DNA from: Promethearchaeati archaeon
GTDB lineage: Archaea > Asgardarchaeota > Heimdallarchaeia > Heimdallarchaeales > Heimdallarchaeaceae
Assembly (NCBI GenBank): GCA_013166775.1
Contig: JABLTJ010000001.1
Span: forward strand, 192,001 to 256,000
DNA length: 64,000 bases
Direction of reading: 5' to 3'
The position numbers and the translations under genes were made by a program. Below, piece after piece: positions 36,139 through 44,220 of the stretch (position 1 is its first letter; each line of letters starts with the position of its first letter). The notes below the pieces were generated by a model. That model worked only from the letters and a program-made list of their open reading frames with translations. It was not told the origin of the DNA and searched no databases.

Positions 36139-39072
36139 CTACTCAAGTAGTAAGGCAGGTTTCATTGGTCTAGATTTTTGAGATTTGTTTTGCGGATCAT
36201 ATATATCTTTGTCATCTGATAGATGTATTAGTATTTCTGCATTCTCGAATCTACTGCTGATAAATTCTCTATATCCTAAAATTGCACTTTCTTGATCTTT
36301 TGCATTCAGCATTTCAATCCTGAAAATTGTAGGATCCCTTAACATCAGTTTTGCTTCATCAGCTATCTCTTTTATGTATTTGTTTAGTTTGTCACTCTCT
36401 TTAGCTGATGCCATTATCTTACCTATTTGCACTGCTTCATCTTTGAAGATATTTTTAGCAAGTTCGTATAGATCATTCTTCCAATCTGCGTTGATATATA
36501 TGTGAACCTTCTTTGGTTTGGTTTTGACTAATTTCACGATTTGATCAATATCATTTATCAGATCTGTCATGTACTTTGCTTGTAAAGCATATAGTATATC
36601 TTTATTATCAATCTCAATATCGGGTATTTGTTTAAGAGAAATATAGTCTTTATTTCCCATTCTTTCATTCAATTCCTCGCTAATATGAGGAATTGCAGGT
36701 GCCATGGTCACTACCATAATTTCGATAATTTCTCGTAATGCTGCTTTTTTCTCTGCTTCTGGCAAATGCTCTGCAAATTTGTGATACTCATCAATTACTC
36801 TGATGTTTGAATAGTATCCTTCTAAGATATATTCTCGAGCACTGAACCGCTCGATTGCTTCATTTGCTTTGCTTAAATTCGCTTTTACTGATGCAATGAA
36901 TACCTTAGAAAGGAAGGAATATTCAACTTTCTCGTTTAGAGAGATATTGGTTACGCTCAAGGCATATTCCCAGAATTTTCTTAATCTTTGAAGTGCGAAA
37001 TTCACTTCCTCTTCTTTCCACTCAAGAACAGTTTCAGGTGTAGCAATAGATGCTAGATGCAATCTTGTTAAGTCAACACTATATTTGTTTGGAACTTGTG
37101 CAATAGGGATAACATTTGGTTTACTCTTACTCATAGCTTCTCCATCACGACTCAACATTTCATTTAATGAGTAAGCAGGCAACCAATATTTCTCAGGAAA
37201 AACTGCAGCGTGATGAAATATAGCGAACGATAAGTGATTAGATATATGATGAACAGCTGTATGTCTAAGATCGTTAGGATACCAATATTCAAATTCATTT
37301 TTCATCAGATCTAATGTTTGCTTAGATACTCCAGTACTGTTACTTACTTCTTTGATACTTCCTTTTGACAGGAATACATAATCAAATAATTCTGGTTTTA
37401 ACTGCTCGGGTTGTATTTTATTTTCCTTTATGAGTCTGATAATTGTATAATATGCCATATAAATAACTGAATCACTCAACGATTCTATTATCCAACCTTC
37501 ACCTTTTGTGAAAGGAAATTCTGTTCCTAGTCCTCTTCTTCTGACACAAGGTCTCTTATCTAACCAATCAAATGTATTTTCAAAGCTTAGCCTATACTTA
37601 TCTGGAGTAATGAACATCTGATTTAATGCTTTGAATGCTTTTTCTTTCCATTCAGGATTACCATAATTTAGGAAATACTGGTTTTGAATTACTGCAACAA
37701 TGATCTGACCTCCACATCTGCAAAAAGCTTTAGTTGAAGGCTCGTAAATTGGTGTAGCTAAGTTTATCTCATATAGAGTGTCCGCAACTTTGTTCTTAGC
37801 TTCTTCTACTTTCAATCCTACATAGTCTCCAGTATTACTTTTCATAACGCCGGAATAATATTCATCCTTGTATATTGTTTGAGTTGCTTCCTCTAGTTTA
37901 TCTCTGTCTTCTTGAGATTTGACTCCTAGTTTCTGGCATATTTCAACAGCAGGAAATTCTCCATAACCCTTTACTTCTATAAGAGAAATTGGTTCAATTT
38001 GTTTCAGATTTTCAGAATTTAAATTATACTTAGAAATTGTTTTTTCATCTTTCTGCAAATCGACAATTGCTGCGCAATCATAAGGAGCATGCCCAGGAAC
38101 ACTATATACTACACCTGTTGCATGATTTGTGTCAACAAAAACGGCAGGATATACAGGTATTTTTCTTCCTGTTATTGGAACTTCTACATATACATCTAAT
38201 AACTCTTCACCCTTCAATTCACTCTTAATTTTAATCTCATGATTCTGTTCTAATAACTTCATGGTGGCTTCTTTTGAAACAATCCATATTTCTCCATCAA
38301 TAGAGATCTCATTATAACTTGCTTTAGGGTGTATCCAAATATTGGTGGCACCAAATATTGTTTCAGGTCGAAGAGTTGCAGCAACAAGGAAGATATTGTT
38401 ATCAAGTTTGAACTTAATGCCAACAAATTCATTAACTTCTACATTAAGTTCATCCCCATCTTGTATATCATCCTCTCCAACAGCATTCTTGTCATTTACA
38501 CACCATAAAATTGGATAATCTCCCTGTACTATCAGATTTTTATTATTTAGTATAGAATATTGCCATTCAATGAATTTGTTATATTCCGGATCACCTGTTG
38601 TGAATTGCCTGGTAGTATCAAGTGAATATCCCATTCCTAAGAAATCTTGGATGATTTTTTCGGCAAAATAATTAGCAACATTTTCTGGTTCTACAAAGGA
38701 AGAGACTACTTCATCAATTCTCTCTATAGTACTTTCATAATATGAGATAAAACCTCTCATTTTTTCCCATTCTTTCTCATCATTATTTTTAATTTTCCAA
38801 GATACTGCGAGAACTGGAGTTCCAGTTATATGAAAGCCCATTGGCCATAGAACATTGTATCCTTTTTGTCTTTTGAATCTTGCAAATATGTCTCCTAATC
38901 CATAAGTTCTGGCATGTCCTATATGAAGAGGAGAAGTTGCATAGGGATACGATACTGTTAGAAACCATTTTGGTTTTGAGCTGTCTACATTTGCGATAAA
39001 AATTTCATCTTCTTGCCATTTCTTCTGCCATTTTTTCTCTATTTTTCGAATTTCATCTAGAAAAGACACCAT
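36139..39072 (-). CDS. leuS: leucyl-tRNA synthetase (archaeal/eukaryotic type)
   Basis: PLHIGH, ATLRPET (CP1), SVPGHAPYD, IESLSDS and AMSKS. Confidence 0.95.
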   Translation of the reverse strand: MVSFLDEIRKIEKKWQKKWQEDEIFIANVDSSKPKWFLTVSYPYATSPLHIGHARTYGLGDIFARFKRQKGYNVLWPMGFHITGTPVLAVSWKIKNNDEKEWEKMRGFISYYESTIERIDEVVSSFVEPENVANYFAEKIIQDFLGMGYSLDTTRQFTTGDPEYNKFIEWQYSILNNKNLIVQGDYPILWCVNDKNAVGEDDIQDGDELNVEVNEFVGIKFKLDNNIFLVAATLRPETIFGATNIWIHPKASYNEISIDGEIWIVSKEATMKLLEQNHEIKIKSELKGEELLDVYVEVPITGRKIPVYPAVFVDTNHATGVVYSVPGHAPYDCAAIVDLQKDEKTISKYNLNSENLKQIEPISLIEVKGYGEFPAVEICQKLGVKSQEDRDKLEEATQTIYKDEYYSGVMKSNTGDYVGLKVEEAKNKVADTLYEINLATPIYEPSTKAFCRCGGQIIVAVIQNQYFLNYGNPEWKEKAFKALNQMFITPDKYRLSFENTFDWLDKRPCVRRRGLGTEFPFTKGEGWIIESLSDSVIYMAYYTIIRLIKENKIQPEQLKPELFDYVFLSKGSIKEVSNSTGVSKQTLDLMKNEFEYWYPNDLRHTAVHHISNHLSFAIFHHAAVFPEKYWLPAYSLNEMLSRDGEAMSKSKPNVIPIAQVPNKYSVDLTRLHLASIATPETVLEWKEEEVNFALQRLRKFWEYALSVTNISLNEKVEYSFLSKVFIASVKANLSKANEAIERFSAREYILEGYYSNIRVIDEYHKFAEHLPEAEKKAALREIIEIMVVTMAPAIPHISEELNERMGNKDYISLKQIPDIEIDNKDILYALQAKYMTDLINDIDQIVKLVKTKPKKVHIYINADWKNDLYELAKNIFKDEAVQIGKIMASAKESDKLNKYIKEIADEAKLMLRDPTIFRIEMLNAKDQESAILGYREFISSRFENAEILIHLSDDKDIYDPQNKSQKSRPMKPALLLE

Positions 39073-39285
39073 TTACATCTCCTTGAATTGTGTTTTTTTC
39101 TTGTGCTCTGAAACAGCTTCTATAATTATGTTTTGAAAAGCTAAAGTAATCAATAAAAGACTTGTCTACTGACATAATAATGCTGTTAAAAACACAAGAA
39201 ACCTGGAAACCACTAAAATAGCTTTCCTTCTTATCTTGAAAGAAGAACACGATACCCCATTTTGGTTTCCTCAATATACAGGTGA
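39073..39285 (-). promoter_or_regulatory. structured about 200-nt leuS leader containing uORF MGYRVLLSR (39231..39260)
   Basis: Nested helices ACCTG/CAGGT, GGAAACCA/TGGTTTCC, AAAATGG/CTATTTT, TTCTTCT/AGAAGGA; second domain TTCTTGTGTTTT/AGAGCACAAGAA, AACAGC/GCTGTT, ATTATGT/ACATAAT. Confidence 0.55.
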
Positions 39286-39335
39286 TTGTAGCATTTATTA
39301 ATATTTTCTAATTTGTTAAAAACAAATCTTACAGA

Positions 39336-40424
39336 TTAATCATGTAATATTGATTTAAAAACCAAGTATTTTTCAACCAAAACTGTCATTTCTTCTTCAG
39401 TCATATTTGGATTTAAGTCAGCTAATATGTTTTTGATTCCTTGTTTAACGTATGCTGTAGGATTTTTACAACTAATTAAACAAATGAAGTTATCATGTTC
39501 CTCAATAATTAAAGAATAAACTCCTAAATCGATTTCTTTGGGAAAAACTTCTTTACCAATCAGTTCTCCAGCGAAAGAAGAAAAAGCTCTTGTAATGCTT
39601 GGTATCATCATTCCCTCCAAACCTGATCCTTTTTGAAGTGATGCTGAATAAACAACATAGCCATCTTTGTTATAAATAAAAATTGAGGATATTTCAGATG
39701 AGTAATAAAAAGCTTCAACTCCACCAAGGTAAATTGAATAACTCATAAGAAGAGCTCCCACAGCTACTGAAATTAATTCCATATGGAGCAAAACTATTTC
39801 GTTCGTAATTGCGAAGATTACTTTTCTTACTATGTAGATAATAATACTGGCAAAATAAGCAATAATCACACCCACAATCATAACTAATAATGTTTTTCTA
39901 TGGTTTTTTTCTAAGAACAAAATCTGTCTTATCAGGTAACCGAGTAAAACTGAACCTGCAAAAATAACTAGAAATCCATCAAAGAAAATCCACACATAAC
40001 CAGTATTAGCTATATAGAAATCCAGTTTACCAGAAGTGACCTCTTGTAAAATAATGCTATAATCAGATGACAAAGTTGTACCTACTAACCCTCCAAATAG
40101 GAAGAATGCTATAACAACAAGAGTTGAATTCAATAATTGTCTCGACGTAAGGGTTCTTACAAATAATATTGTAGCAACCATTGCTATCATACTACTAATT
40201 GTGTTGAATTTTGACAAGAATAATGCAGCACTTTCATTATGGATTTGGCTCACATAAACCAGTATCATATCCCCTATTATCCACAACATGATAAAAACAA
40301 TTAATGATATGAAATAATAAACAGAGGTTGAGGAAGTTTTTATTTGCTTCATAATTACTAGGATCAAACCAATAATAAGTGCGATGATTGAAAAAATACC
40401 TATCCCGTAAGACACCCAAACCAT
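39336..40424 (-). CDS. 7-TM membrane protein with C-terminal longin/roadblock-like domain
   Basis: About 7 hydrophobic helices, then ISSIFIYNKDGYVVYS...AFSSFAGEL...KEIDLG beta-beta-alpha-beta pattern. Confidence 0.55.
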   Translation of the reverse strand: MVWVSYGIGIFSIIALIIGLILVIMKQIKTSSTSVYYFISLIVFIMLWIIGDMILVYVSQIHNESAALFLSKFNTISSMIAMVATILFVRTLTSRQLLNSTLVVIAFFLFGGLVGTTLSSDYSIILQEVTSGKLDFYIANTGYVWIFFDGFLVIFAGSVLLGYLIRQILFLEKNHRKTLLVMIVGVIIAYFASIIIYIVRKVIFAITNEIVLLHMELISVAVGALLMSYSIYLGGVEAFYYSSEISSIFIYNKDGYVVYSASLQKGSGLEGMMIPSITRAFSSFAGELIGKEVFPKEIDLGVYSLIIEEHDNFICLISCKNPTAYVKQGIKNILADLNPNMTEEEMTVLVEKYLVFKSILHD

Positions 40425-40504
40425 TGAACGAAGTTTCTATTACTTCTTTAAAATATTTACTCAACATTCATGTTATCAGGAAAAAAAGATAAATGAGTGG
40501 TGTA

Positions 40505-42424
40505 TTATTCATAATTTTCCATTTGCTTGTGAATTTTTTCAATAAGATTCTTTATTTTTACACCGAATTCAACTTTATTTCCTCTCGATCTGACAGCTAT
40601 AGTTTGTGCTTCGACTTCCTTGTCTCCAACGTTTATGATATAGGGGATTTTTTGCATAGTAGCCTGACGAATTTTATATTCCATTCTTTCCCCACTTAAA
40701 TCTGCTTCAGCACGAATTCCTTCATTTTGAAAATTTAAGGAAACTTGTTTAGCATACTCTATGTGTTCATCAGTTATTGGAATGACAGTAACTTGAATTG
40801 GACTTAACCAAACTGGTAATTTACCTGCATAATGCTCTATAAGTATAGCTAGGAATCTTTCAGTTGCTCCAAAGATTACCCTATGAATAACAAACGGTCT
40901 GTGTTTCTGTCCATCTTCTCCAATATAGTTTATATCGAATCGATCAGGAAGATTGAAATCTACTTGAATTGTGGCTAGTTGCCATCTTCTTCCTATGGCA
41001 TCTTTGACATCTACATCTATTTTGGGACCATAAAATACTCCTTCACCAGCTTTAATTTTATATGGCAGATCCAATCTAACTAGAGCATTCTTGAGAGAAC
41101 TAGTTGCGTGTTCCCATCCTTCTTCAGTTCCAATCGCTTCTTCTGGTTTGGTGCTTATGAAAAATTCCCAGTCAGTAAAACCAAAAGCTTTGTAGAAATG
41201 GTTAATCATCTGAATAACATCAACAATCTCATCTTCTAGTTGTTCGGATAACATGAAAAGATGAGCATCATCTTGCGTAAAACTTCTAATTCTGAATAAT
41301 CCGTGAAGAGCTCCAGAAAGTTCATATCTATATACAGTCCCCATCTCACCAATTCTGATAGGAAGTTCTTTGTACGAATAGGTACGGCGATTAAAAATCA
41401 TCATGTGCCCTGGACAGTTCATAGGTTTCACGTACCATTTTTCTCCTTTCAGATTTACAGGAAACATATTTTCAACGTAATATTCCGTATGACCACTAGT
41501 CTGCCAGACATTTTCCTTGTAAACATGAGGGGTTTGAACGATTTCGTATCCTGCTTTTTCATGTTCTTTATTCCAAAAATCTCTCATTACTTCCAATATT
41601 GCCCTACCTTTTGGAAAAATAAGTGGCATACCTGGTCCCCATTCATCGGCCGTATCGAATAGATCAAGTTGTCTTCCAATTATGCGATGATCTCTTTTCT
41701 TCGCTTCTTCGAGCATATTAACGTGCTTCCTCAATTCCTTTGGATTGAAGAATGCTACACCATAGACTCTCTGCAGGGATTCTCTATTAGCATCAGCTCG
41801 CCAAAATGCAGCTGAAGCATTAAGTATCTTTATAGCTTTAACTCTCTTTGTTGATGGAACGTGGGGTCCACGACATAAATCTTTGAAAGCTCCATTTCCA
41901 TGCGAATAGAAGGAAACTTCTTCCGTTTCCATCTCTTTCAGAATCTCTACTTTGAATTTATTATCTTCTACTTTCTGATAATATTTGATAGCTTCTGCTA
42001 AAGACATTTCTTCTCTTAGAAATTTAGTATCTTCAGCTATTATTTCATCTACTTTTTTTTGAATTCGATCTAAATCCTCCTGAGTAAAAGGCTTTTCAAT
42101 ATAGAAATCATAGTAGAAACCAACAGGCTCTATACTTGGTCCTATAGTTGGTCTTGCATTAGGAAATAATTCAACAACTGCTTCAGCCATTATATGTGCT
42201 GCACTGTGATTAAGTACATGTAATGCTTCTTCTGATTTCTCTGTCAAGATCTCAAAGTCTGCATCATTTTCGATTACATAATGTAAATCTACTAGCTTTC
42301 CATTAATTTTAGCTGCTATGGAAGCATCTGCTAAACCTTGTCCAATTTGCAGTGCTGCATCTCGAACAGTTTTTCCCTTTGAAATTTCTAATATATTTTC
42401 ATCTGGTAAAGTTAATTTAACCAT
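40505..42424 (-). CDS. thrS: threonyl-tRNA synthetase, bacterial/eukaryotic type (TGS + SAD editing domain)
   Basis: TGS N-terminus, HSAAH, DLCRGPHV, KPMNCPGH, FTQDDAH and FYGPKID; SD AGGTGA before ATG 42424. Confidence 0.95.
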   Translation of the reverse strand: MVKLTLPDENILEISKGKTVRDAALQIGQGLADASIAAKINGKLVDLHYVIENDADFEILTEKSEEALHVLNHSAAHIMAEAVVELFPNARPTIGPSIEPVGFYYDFYIEKPFTQEDLDRIQKKVDEIIAEDTKFLREEMSLAEAIKYYQKVEDNKFKVEILKEMETEEVSFYSHGNGAFKDLCRGPHVPSTKRVKAIKILNASAAFWRADANRESLQRVYGVAFFNPKELRKHVNMLEEAKKRDHRIIGRQLDLFDTADEWGPGMPLIFPKGRAILEVMRDFWNKEHEKAGYEIVQTPHVYKENVWQTSGHTEYYVENMFPVNLKGEKWYVKPMNCPGHMMIFNRRTYSYKELPIRIGEMGTVYRYELSGALHGLFRIRSFTQDDAHLFMLSEQLEDEIVDVIQMINHFYKAFGFTDWEFFISTKPEEAIGTEEGWEHATSSLKNALVRLDLPYKIKAGEGVFYGPKIDVDVKDAIGRRWQLATIQVDFNLPDRFDINYIGEDGQKHRPFVIHRVIFGATERFLAILIEHYAGKLPVWLSPIQVTVIPITDEHIEYAKQVSLNFQNEGIRAEADLSGERMEYKIRQATMQKIPYIINVGDKEVEAQTIAVRSRGNKVEFGVKIKNLIEKIHKQMENYE

Positions 42425-42535
42425 CTTATCACCTGTAAAATTTTTCTCAAGAGGACCGCGCACCTACTTAACAGTAGGGAAATTAAAAAACTGCTATTTA
42501 ATTGTTTCATATTCACCTAGCATTGTCCTCAAACG
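42425..42535 (-). promoter_or_regulatory. structured thrS leader containing uORF MLGEYETIK (42494..42523)
   Basis: Closing helix GAGGAC/GTCCTC; hairpin CCTAC-TGTTAA-GTAGG; competing TGCTA/TAGCA and AATTAAA/TTTAATT; TATA-like TTTTTAAAT about 20 nt upstream. Confidence 0.45.
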
Positions 42536-42669
42536 ATTTATCTCAATTTCATTTAAAAAATTTATTACTTGTTCAATTTCCAGAAATTTGATGAAAAGAA
42601 GCAAAAAGTTAATATTATTTTCGTTTTCTTTGGAAACAGAAAATACCTTTTTGTATTTTGATACATGAT

Positions 42670-44220
42670 ATGGAGTTACTTGATATGAAACGGAAACATT
42701 TTGCTAGCCTTTCTATTTTTCAAATAATGGCTATGTTCCGAAGAGGTATTTTTTACTTTTTCCTTAGTATTTATCTTAAAGAATATCTTCACGTCTCAAA
42801 TACTGAAATGACATTGTTTGCAACTCTACCAATGATCGCTAATATTGCATCACAGTCAGGTTTATGGGGACGAATTTCTGATAAATTCAAGAAAAGAAGA
42901 CTCTTGATTGTTTTTGGGGAACTTTATGCTGCGATAGGTTATTTGGTTGTATATTGGATTCACAAAGGATACGAAAAAGAAGGAGCTTTAAGAGCTGCTG
43001 CATTTGCAATTATAATAGGTTTTACAATAGTTGAAGCAGGTTGGAGTAGTAGTAATCTAGGGTGGTCAACTCTTATTGCTGACCTGACAAGAGATTCTGA
43101 AAGAAGTAGAATAATGGGATTACTTCAATTCATCGGTGGGATTGGGAATATTTTAGGAGTTACAGCAAGTGGATTTCTGTATCTTGGTGGAAAAGGTTTT
43201 TCTGAAGGTTATTTATTCTTCATCTCATCAGGAATAATGATTTTTAGTATTGTAGCTCTATTCATGATACCGGAATCTTACGCAGATTTGGAAAAAAGTG
43301 ATGATAAAGAGATTGTTGAGCTCGTAGAAGAACAACAAAATATGATAAGGGAAGCAAAAGAGAACTCTGGTTCATTCAAATGGGAATGGAAAGTATTTGT
43401 CTGGCTTCTAGTTATCCTTGCTATAATTAATATTGGAGGAAACAGCATAAATCAAATGGTGAACATACACGTACGTTTACCTAGTACATTCAATGCTTCA
43501 GACATAATTGTTGCTCAGTTGCGGAATACTACGAATATATCAATGATTATTGCAGGTTTAGTAATCGGTTTTCTTGCAAAGAAATTTGGTGATGGTAAGA
43601 TGTTACTTGCAGGATTTGTCCTTGCTTTTATTGGAACCATAGCTCTACCATTTGCACCTAGCATAGTATTTGTCTTCGTCTATATGGCAACTAGAGGCTT
43701 TACAAGAGTCTGGGTACAAACAACGGCTTATTCAATGGTTAACCGAGTGGTTCCTTTAGAAAAAAGAGGAAGAATGATGGGTTATTATAATGCTACTTTT
43801 TACCTCTCGTGGGGTTTGGGAGGAACAATACTTACTGGTCCTATTGCTGATGCTATTGTAGGATCTAATTTGATAGTCATACTTACTTATACTATTCTTG
43901 GTATAATCGCAGTTGGAGCCTGGTCTTTCCTTATTATTTCTAAATTCACTAATATAAGGAGTAAAATGAAATTATTTATTGGAACTGCAATTGGGTGGTT
44001 TGGTCTATCCGGAGTTTTAGCTGCTTTTGTTGCTAAATCCTTTGCTTCATTTGTTATTTCCTACGGATCTTCAGATTCTTATGCTTACAAAGTTACATTT
44101 CTTATTGCTGCTGTTTTAATCGCAATAGGAACACTTACTTATATACTCTATCGACCCAAGAAGTATAATGTTCTGATTCTCGACAAAGCTGTTGGCACAT
44201 TGAATGAAGCTAACAGTTAA
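42670..44220 (+). CDS. MFS transporter
   Basis: WGRISDKFKKRR motif A; 12-14 TM helices; EKRGRMMG. Confidence 0.85.
   Translation: MELLDMKRKHFASLSIFQIMAMFRRGIFYFFLSIYLKEYLHVSNTEMTLFATLPMIANIASQSGLWGRISDKFKKRRLLIVFGELYAAIGYLVVYWIHKGYEKEGALRAAAFAIIIGFTIVEAGWSSSNLGWSTLIADLTRDSERSRIMGLLQFIGGIGNILGVTASGFLYLGGKGFSEGYLFFISSGIMIFSIVALFMIPESYADLEKSDDKEIVELVEEQQNMIREAKENSGSFKWEWKVFVWLLVILAIINIGGNSINQMVNIHVRLPSTFNASDIIVAQLRNTTNISMIIAGLVIGFLAKKFGDGKMLLAGFVLAFIGTIALPFAPSIVFVFVYMATRGFTRVWVQTTAYSMVNRVVPLEKRGRMMGYYNATFYLSWGLGGTILTGPIADAIVGSNLIVILTYTILGIIAVGAWSFLIISKFTNIRSKMKLFIGTAIGWFGLSGVLAAFVAKSFASFVISYGSSDSYAYKVTFLIAAVLIAIGTLTYILYRPKKYNVLILDKAVGTLNEANS

Follow-up and report, generated by a model that had tools for sequence, protein, structure and literature searches.

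Candidate +1 frameshift gauges of tRNA charging in the leaders of Asgard archaeal aminoacyl-tRNA synthetase genes

This work concerns the leaders of leuS and thrS, the genes for leucyl- and threonyl-tRNA synthetase (LeuRS and ThrRS), in a 64,000-nucleotide (nt) stretch of a Heimdallarchaeaceae genome. The stretch, referred to here as the window, comprises positions 192001-256000 of contig C1 of a metagenome-assembled genome (MAG) of 3.85 Mb, 115 contigs, and 33% G+C. Each leader contains a short upstream open reading frame (mini-ORF) in which a codon for the amino acid of the downstream synthetase is conserved. Past this sensing codon, the reading frame of the mini-ORF (frame 0) is closed within 1 to 7 codons and frame +2 closes early, while frame +1 remains open to the start of the synthetase gene. 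The same device precedes seven synthetase genes—leuS, thrS, ileS, proS, metS, trpS, and pheS—and the codon is always the cognate one. We propose, at a probability of roughly 0.6, that each leader gauges its cognate aminoacyl-tRNA by means of a programmed +1 frameshift at a hungry codon of the mini-ORF. With seven synthetase genes and many Asgard lineages involved, the leaders appear to be a system and not two coincidences.

The open +1 frame and the shift site

An open +1 frame was present in all ~70 leaders checked outside metS (leuS, thrS, ileS, proS, trpS, and pheS). For leuS, the frame was open in 18/18 leaders of the genus, over 58 to 70 codons, and in 13/13 leaders from other families; the corresponding counts were 13/13 for thrS (30 to 33 codons), 4/4 for ileS, and 2/2 for proS. 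Summed over 50 leaders of these four genes, stop codons numbered 319 in frame 0, 192 in frame +2, and 0 in frame +1. When genus leuS leaders were shuffled, the +1 frame was stop-free in 0.3 to 1.5% of trials, and the stop-free fractions for the leaders of Promethearchaeum syntrophicum MK-D1 and Candidatus (Ca.) Heimdallarchaeum aukensis were 0.002 and 0.003, respectively. Four chance matches to the leuS motif within coding DNA had no open +1 frame. No alignment is possible between leaders from separate families or from separate synthetase genes, which makes these observations both many and independent. The +1 stop codon falls between -25 and +47 nt relative to the main start, and in several leaders, including MK-D1 leuS and three pheS leaders, it overlaps the start codon in a 4-nt ATGA or TTGA. 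In G020 (locus L023) and G030 (L025), the +1 frame entered at the Leu sensing codon runs without a break into LeuRS, so that shifting would give these two genomes an N-terminally extended LeuRS, as in prfB.

The +1 frame is preserved, but the peptide that it would encode is not. In thrS, insertions and deletions within this frame are all multiples of three (3, 6, or 9 nt), and variability is flat over codon positions, from which we conclude that openness is maintained and sequence is not. The +1 products matched no Pfam family. A real small protein as the meaning of the +1 ORF was rejected on the basis of this lack of a Pfam family, the lack of codon-position periodicity, and the unrelatedness of the sequences between synthetases. 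A separate small-RNA gene is also unlikely, as the +1 frame ties the element to the synthetase start. For annotation purposes, such leaders and their +1 ORFs are easily miscalled as small genes.

Entry into the +1 frame is restricted in many leaders. Ahead of the sensing codon, the +1 frame contains no ATG, GTG, or TTG in ileS (0/4) or in three genus leuS leaders, and most leuS leaders of other families likewise have none. With no upstream +1 start codon available in these leaders, the mini-ORF is the sole way into their +1 frame. In thrS and proS, two stop codons flank the site, one in the +1 frame at 11 nt ahead of the sensing codon and that of frame 0 at 6 to 9 nt past it, so that any shift in these leaders would be confined to ~20 nt around the sensing codon.

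The codon that occupies the ribosomal peptidyl site (P site) when the sensing codon is in the aminoacyl site (A site) changes in step with the base that begins the sensing codon, with no exception among the leaders read. Sensing codons that start with A (ACA, AUU, AUC, and AUG) are preceded by GAA or CAA; those that start with C (CUU, CUA, CUC, CCG, CCA, and CCU) are preceded by GUU, UUU, or CUU; and those that start with U (UGG, UUC, and UUU) are preceded by AAU, or once by ACU. In the usual archaeal decoding, U34 reads NNA and G34 reads NNY, so that a +1 slip keeps the position-34 pair. Re-pairing after such a slip is full for UUU-C and CUU-C and comprises two of three pairs for GAA-A, GUU-C, and AAU-U, and an NUU-C slip converts a G-U wobble into a G-C pair. 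Variation among GUU, UUU, and CUU makes little sense as a constraint on the peptide (Val, Phe, or Leu) but makes good sense as N-UU-C. A Shine-Dalgarno (SD)-like run (AGGUGA, GGGGU, AGGGA, or AGGAA), complementary to the 3' end of the 16S rRNA of this genome (GGAUCACCUCCU), lies 4 to 6 nt 5' of the P-site codon. The invariant cognate codon that follows fits a presumed conditional slowness at the A site.

The leuS and thrS leaders and the wider family

Both synthetase genes of the window, together with all leader features described here, lie on the minus strand. The leuS leader has a TATA-like promoter box, ATATTAATAAAT (39293..39305), ~33 nt 5' of the mini-ORF ATG; an equivalent box, TTTAATAA, is kept at the same distance before the leuS mini-ORF in relatives, and a transcription start site (TSS) probably follows it. 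Next come TTGAGGA (39274..39268) and the 5' strand of helix P1, GGAAACC (39264..39270), which doubles as the SD sequence of the mini-ORF and pairs with GGTTTCC (39205..39211). The mini-ORF itself is 30 nt long in frame 0 and encodes MGYRVLLSR* (39231..39260). Within it are the SD-like GGGGU (39258..39254), the P-site codon GUU (39248..39246), and the sensing Leu codon CUU (39245..39243), which is followed by a second Leu codon, CTT (39242..39240). The +1 frame comprises 63 sense codons and a TGA (39053..39244); it overlaps the leuS start at 39072 and ends 20 nt inside the gene. Distal to the 3' strand of P1 are T-runs (39192..39188), which may act as an archaeal terminator, and a second, conserved T-run or TATA-like element, CTTTTATT (39152..39159), which corresponds to AACGCTTTTAAT in relatives (columns 112-130 of alignment A1).

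In the thrS leader, the TATA-like box AAATTTTTTAAAT (42551..42563) is conserved in relatives and likewise implies a nearby TSS. It is followed by TTGAGGA (42532..42526) and by the P1 5' strand GAGGAC (42525..42530), which is also SD-like and pairs with GTCCTC (42456..42451). The 30-nt mini-ORF, again in frame 0, encodes MLGEYETIK* (42494..42523) and includes the SD-like AGGUGA (42518..42513), the P-site codon GAA (42508..42506), and, as codon 7, the sensing Thr codon ACA (42505..42503). Directly after its stop codon is a T6 run, UUUUUUAAU (42485..42490), which could function as a terminator or as a TATA box. The +1 frame (42412..42504) contains 30 sense codons and a TAA and ends 13 nt inside thrS, which starts at 42424.

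Conservation was read from upstream regions at the leuS and thrS loci fetched from 30 relatives. LeuRS identity to the window protein is 76% in "Candidatus Heimdallarchaeota" MAGs such as AB_125, 63% in Ca. Heimdallarchaeum, and 55% in P. syntrophicum MK-D1. The leuS mini-ORF (ATGGGGTATCGYKTTCTTCTT...) was found in 18 genus genomes, and other families of the order, where LeuRS identity is only 31 to 57%, have recognizable versions (ATG-RGG-WAT-YRY-KTT-CTW). An exact match to the leuS pattern (RTG-RGG-WAT-YRY-KTT-CTW) was obtained in 27/47 genomes of the order, compared with 0 for the reversed-pattern control. Matches in G010, G012, G038, and G040 were set aside as chance or unrelated, given that they lie inside coding DNA and have no long +1 frame. 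The thrS mini-ORF is kept by each of the 13 genomes of the genus in which this region is present, with the consensus MLGE[YCW]ET[IL][KYS]*. It has nine codons every time, ACA at codon 7 is invariant (13/13), and the position of the stop is maintained despite a change from TAG to TGA. Within this one taxonomic order, LeuRS itself falls into two types with a mutual identity of 31 to 37% (L020-L030 and L001-L019), and both are preceded by a Leu-sensing leader of the same kind.

The leader helices are conserved to different degrees. Over 14 sequences, the three leuS helices were 93.8% paired, versus 36 to 48% when one strand was slid. They carry compensatory changes—the P1 pair at alignment columns 14/73, for instance, is AU in 7 cases, GU in 4, and GC in 2—and the observed covariation was reached by 0/500 shuffles. 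The thrS closing helix was 98.7% paired, with one compensatory change (GAGGAU/AUCCUC, in G007), and is retained in Ca. H. aukensis; its covariation is statistically weak, being matched in 99/500 shuffles. As a whole, the thrS leader folded no better than shuffled sequences (z = 0.14). An anticodon-mimic hairpin in the thrS leader was considered and rejected, as its UGU loop varies (TGTTAA, ATGAGA, and AGTTAA) and its stem is not conserved; the putative hairpin is absent from G005, G008, G010, and G012.

These results bear on a first-pass annotation of the window, which had described paired 30-nt upstream ORFs in the two leaders, each behind a TATA-like box and the same TTGAGGA and each with its SD sequence in the closing helix of a folded domain. 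All of these elements are present at 39260..39231 and 42523..42494, and the closing helices GGAAACC/GGTTTCC (leuS) and GAGGAC/GTCCTC (thrS) are conserved. Of the checks that it had suggested, conservation gave a clear answer: every genus member that has the region retains the upstream ORF, with the cognate codon invariant. Helix covariation bore out leuS and was statistically weak in thrS. The annotation had also cautioned that short ORFs arise by chance; the conservation and the recovery of four synthetase leaders with their cognate codons in a motif scan (described below) go well beyond such an origin. Its two other cautions were well placed. Cognate codons are indeed few, at one or two copies, yet they do not vary, and the thrS SD sequence is indeed close to the mini-ORF ATG; its spacing is more favorable for a +1-frame GUG, 9 nt away.

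A T-rich, TATA-like second block is present in every leader (AACGCTTTTAAT in leuS and GGTTTTTTAAT in thrS). It may serve as a terminator of the U-tract type or as a constitutive promoter close to the gene, or it may do both. Its survival in three genomes that have lost the leuS sensor would favor a promoter role. In these genomes (G010, locus L003; G001, L011; and G016, L019), the leuS mini-ORF module is gone and the proximal leader with its AAAGATAACKCTTTTAAT block is retained, which indicates that leuS can be expressed without the sensor.

For the other synthetases, genes were located with Pfam in the window genome and four relatives, and their upstream regions were then read. The ileS device is ATGGATCGCGAA-ATT, with the mini-ORF MDREIR(Y); the proS device is ATGATAGGTGAATTTGTT-CCG, with MIGEFVPK; and the trpS device is ..GTGATTAAT-TGG, with MRVINWTGINQL*. 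Those of metS and pheS are ..AGGGAWNNNGAA-ATG and ..ACTTGGAAT-TTC, respectively. A motif common to the leaders, G-G-[GUA]-[AUG]-[AU]-[AU]-N-N-Y-G-(AA|UU), occupies the twelve bases 5' of the sensing codon. A scan of the whole genome with this motif returned 17 intergenic matches, four of which precede synthetase genes (leuS, thrS, ileS, and proS), with the correct codon in each; only these four have both a promoter-like context and a downstream gene. Genome-wide scans of the window genome yielded no further members before nonsynthetase genes, the extra matches being in coding DNA or lacking a promoter and downstream gene. In the upstream regions read, the device was not seen before valS, two PF00152 synthetases, gluS/glnS, argS, hisS, or cysS; alaS, glyS, lysS, serS, and tyrS were left out of the survey.

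Outside the order, the device is present on leuS, thrS, proS, and ileS in Ca. H. aukensis and on leuS in Ca. Heimdallarchaeum endolithica. It was also found on leuS, proS, and ileS in a Thorarchaeota MAG; on leuS, proS, and an ileS-type gene in a Hermodarchaeota MAG; on leuS, proS, and metS in a Hodarchaeota MAG; and on leuS (ATGGGTGAATATTTT-CTC) in the cultured P. syntrophicum MK-D1. The ileS-type pattern ATGGATYGYSAAATY matched in 164/399 Asgard genomes, compared with ~1 match per ten genomes for the reversed-pattern control. Its matches in G002, G004, G007, G011, and G017 have no long +1 frame and were dismissed as chance or unrelated. Upstream of leuS in DPANN, Methanobacteriales, and Njord records, no device was seen.

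Several of the synthetase leaders have features of their own. The Trp codon of the trpS mini-ORF opens a long inverted repeat, UGGACUGG ... CCAGUCCA (L120 and L122-L124), which encloses a second hairpin, giving a fold more elaborate than that of the other leaders. In the metS leader (L136; G000:C54), GGTGGTAAAGTGGTC...GACCACC flanks the Met-sensing motif, and the metS open frame of the window genome is 573 amino acids (aa) long, versus ~684 aa in relatives. Before valS, in place of a mini-ORF device, is a conserved perfect hairpin, TTGAGTG..CACTCAA (L066-L070; G000:C1 at ~55.4 kb), which abuts a TTTTTAAAG box ~40 nt before the start. The region upstream of cysS (L299-L301; G000:C22) has a conserved GCGAAACGCTTTTTTAAG block preceded by the inverted repeat AAGTTAA...TTAACTT, and argS (L126 and L128-L130; G000:C94) has a conserved AAAGTTTATGTAAAACA ... 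GAAGGAAAGTTTAAGTATTTTT ~100 nt upstream, without a cognate mini-ORF.

Within the window, the gene order on the minus strand is thrS (42424..40505), a 362-aa membrane ORF (40424..39336), and leuS (39072..36139). LeuRS (977 aa; 36139..39072) has the Pfam domains tRNA-synt_1 and Anticodon_1 and the LeuRS editing domain. ThrRS (40505..42424) has TGS, tRNA_SAD, tRNA-synt_2b, and HGTP_anticodon; it is 639 aa long when counted from the SD-preceded ATG at 42424, which we take as the start, the GTG at 42463 of the ORF list being upstream of that ATG. An MFS transporter gene at ~42658 is divergent from thrS, and no tRNA genes were found in the window. The multi-pass membrane ORF between the two synthetase genes (39336-40424, minus strand) has no Pfam family, and a homologue lies directly 5' of leuS in most genus relatives. 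The thrS gene is co-oriented with leuS in the window genome and G006 only and is convergent with it elsewhere, a difference that points to local rearrangement.

Proposed mechanism and rival explanations

The mechanism that we propose builds on what the sequences show: a conserved leader anatomy, a +1 frame that stays open yet in many leaders has no start codon of its own, and P-site and sensing codons that vary together. Transcription would start ~25 nt after the TATA box, near TTGAGGA, and a ribosome would initiate at the mini-ORF. Some 4 to 6 codons on, the sensing codon (CUU in leuS and ACA in thrS) would reach the A site, at which point the SD-like GGGGU or AGGUGA would be 4 to 6 nt 5' of a P-site codon that is shift-prone in its context (GUU-C or GAA-A). 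If charged cognate tRNA is plentiful, the codon would be read, and the ribosome would terminate 2 to 4 codons later and leave. We infer that, if charged tRNA is scarce, hunger at this codon would trigger the shift itself: the waiting ribosome would slip into frame +1, translate the entire leader, and terminate on the synthetase start codon. Along the way, it would melt the leader helices and carry RNA polymerase past the U-runs behind each mini-ORF, perhaps as a form of anti-termination. Termination-reinitiation would then hand ribosomes to the synthetase start, so that the direction of regulation would be toward more synthetase when charged tRNA is short. More speculatively, P1 holds the SD sequence of the mini-ORF and its 3' strand is transcribed later, which may limit sensing to the pioneer ribosome. 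We give even odds to the broadest form of this proposal, namely, that the leaders are ancient, phylum-wide, sense-codon +1 gauges, one per amino acid (at least Leu, Ile, Met, Thr, Pro, Trp, and Phe), in which the pioneer ribosome, loaded ahead of closing-helix formation, either stops and leaves the transcript to end at the U-run or slips +1, escorts the polymerase into the synthetase gene, and reinitiates there.

Several observations weigh against a frameshift gauge. The metS leader is the weakest member of the family: its +1 frame reaches the start in only 3/5 genomes and in the window genome stops after 17 codons. The spacing of the SD-like run is 4 to 6 nt, versus 3 nt in prfB. The first-position mismatch that would remain after a GAA-to-AAA or GUU-to-UUC slip is poorer than the pairing at classical sites, and AAU-U and ACU-U (trpS and pheS) re-pair badly. 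The sensing codons are not rare: CUU, ACA, and AUU make up 22%, 45%, and 48% of the codons for Leu, Thr, and Ile, respectively. The second TATA-like element within each leader could yield transcripts that are free of the sensor. Finally, leaders of the GGUGA class (thrS, proS, and MK-D1 leuS) carry a +1-frame GUG 9 nt downstream of the leader SD, and direct initiation at this codon could feed the +1 ORF with no shift needed.

This last observation is the starting point of a rival explanation, which we consider improbable though worth weighing, in which two upstream ORFs overlap and no frameshift takes place. A long leader ORF, started directly at the GUG in AGGUGA or at a noncanonical codon, would be coupled to the synthetase gene, and the frame-0 mini-ORF would compete with it or gate it, for example, through a waiting ribosome that blocks or frees the other start. 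In its favor, thrS, proS, MK-D1 leuS, and H. aukensis leuS all have the +1 GUG 9 nt after the leader SD, while the AUG in those four leader types is only 2 nt after it, and the overlap of +1 stops with main starts is compatible with translational coupling. The absence of any +1 ATG, GTG, or TTG before the sensing codon in ileS (0/4) and in many leuS leaders argues in the other direction: direct +1 initiation is possible in the GGUGA class and impossible in leaders that have no +1 start. Simple competition also predicts neither a +1 frame that stays open from the sensing codon onward nor the co-variation of the P-site codon.

A classical stalling attenuator, in which a ribosome paused at the cognate codon alters the leader fold or its coupling to the polymerase, strikes us as no likelier than overlapping ORFs. 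Its output would be termination or read-through at the U-run, or exposure or hiding of the synthetase SD sequence. The cognate-codon mini-ORF that is conserved everywhere speaks for such a device, as do the terminator-like succession of a P1 helix that contains the mini-ORF SD and then a U-run, and the bacterial precedent of pheST and the trp, leu, and thr leaders. What it leaves without a reason is the stop-free +1 frame that extends to the synthetase start in ~70 leaders, with its in-frame insertions and deletions. Nor were mutually exclusive helices predicted, the consensus folds comprising only nested P1, P2, and a distal helix; the thrS leader folds no better than shuffled sequences, and the cognate codons number only one or two. 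The first-pass annotation had favored attenuation of this kind, with stalling at the cognate codon remodeling the leader. The part of that proposal concerning conserved, translated-looking cognate mini-ORFs that form a system is supported; the output as proposed is not, given the unexplained +1 frame, the lack of exclusive hairpins, and the thrS z value of 0.14.

Least probable is a sensor that works without ribosomes, either a T-box-like pairing of a specifier with the anticodon or a tRNA-mimic operator bound by the synthetase, as in Escherichia coli thrS. The motif is conserved in its nucleotides, even those at wobble positions, and the cognate codon always follows at the same distance, which would suit such a sensor; in addition, ThrRS is of the bacterial type. 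Against this stand the nonconserved UGU loop and the loss of its hairpin in four genomes, as well as the absence of any T-box or other Rfam family at E values of up to 5 in 38800..42900; the permissive Rfam search of this region gave just two chance-level matches, to MIR396 and RAGATH-30. The in-frame start, the early frame-0 stop, and the open +1 frame are, moreover, reading-frame features that an RNA-only device would not need. A C/D-box or K-turn interpretation of the motif was dropped, as it has neither a box C nor a box D consensus.

Comparison with known systems

Bacteria adjust synthetase expression through T-boxes, leader peptides, and operators, and eukaryotes rely on GCN2/GCN4. We know of no mechanism that tunes synthetase levels to tRNA charging in archaea. 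Neither full-text literature searches nor two reviews were found to describe such leaders on archaeal synthetase genes or a synthetase controlled by frameshifting, and literature searches likewise gave no case of an archaeal leader-peptide attenuator. According to De Lise et al. (2021; PMC8211752), the one frameshift demonstrated in Archaea is a -1 event in Saccharolobus.

The bacterial attenuators of E. coli (pheST/pheM and trp, leu, thr, his, and ilv) resemble the Asgard leaders in that a leader ORF with cognate codons reads tRNA charging, and pheST is itself a synthetase operon under leader-peptide attenuation. These attenuators rely on runs of cognate codons and on alternative terminator and antiterminator hairpins. 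The Asgard leaders, in contrast, have a short leader ORF with just one or two cognate codons and a conserved +1 ORF; U-runs are present, and only nested helices were found in place of mutually exclusive ones. The T-boxes of Gram-positive bacteria are likewise synthetase leaders with one cognate specifier codon in a conserved context and one member per amino acid. They differ in binding uncharged tRNA without ribosomes and in having Stem I, a K-turn, and the T-box sequence, none of which was matched here (Rfam). The E. coli thrS operator shares with the Asgard thrS leader its position before thrS and a structured domain near the SD sequence; the Asgard leader has no conserved anticodon-like loop, and its conserved part is the mini-ORF.

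The nearest relative in principle is the autoregulated bacterial prfB (release factor 2), whose shift site unites a slippery codon and a slow A site with an SD sequence 3 nt upstream (PMC10798248). As in prfB, the supply of a translation factor would be gauged by the speed with which one A-site codon is served, and the shift would be +1; a candidate slippery P-site codon precedes that codon, and an SD-like run complementary to the 16S tail lies upstream. The +1 frame of G020 and G030 also resembles prfB in running on into the LeuRS ORF. The conserved 0/+1 frame overlap characteristic of prfB-type sites was found in leuS, thrS, ileS, proS, trpS, and pheS, and it spans ~20 nt in thrS and proS. 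The two systems differ in that the A-site codon of prfB is a stop codon read by a protein, whereas that of the Asgard leaders is a sense codon read by an aminoacyl-tRNA. The Asgard site also lies in a leader mini-ORF, and its shifted frame is a nonconserved transit ORF that ends on the main start. Furthermore, the Asgard SD spacing is 4 to 6 nt and not 3, and the device is archaeal and forms a family for seven synthetases.

The +1 shifts of the eukaryotic Ty1, EST3, ABP140, and antizyme sites, together with the "hungry codon" shifts of E. coli, also arise from slow A-site decoding that depends on a tRNA or ligand (Atkins et al. 2016, PMC5009743; PMC8211752). Their outcome is a trans-frame protein or an unprogrammed error, and none is reported for a synthetase gene or leader; the term "tRNA synthetase" does not appear in the portion covered of the recoding review by Atkins et al. 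(2016; PMC5009743).

If the broadest form of the proposal is true, the leaders would be the first tRNA-charging sensor known in Archaea and the first case in any domain of hunger at a single sense codon serving as a programmed switch for a downstream gene. A frameshift gauge of this kind would close a gap in what is known of archaeal regulation and extend the uses of recoding, and it would do so in the archaea most closely related to eukaryotes. The proposal can be tested directly, as the device is present on leuS in the cultured P. syntrophicum MK-D1 and in complete Ca. Heimdallarchaeum genomes. Its principle, the use of a +1 shift to gauge A-site occupancy, has precedents in prfB, Ty1, and antizyme; the elements that appear to be new are the placement in a leader, the sense-codon sensor, the output by coupling, and the extension to a family of seven synthetases in Asgard archaea.

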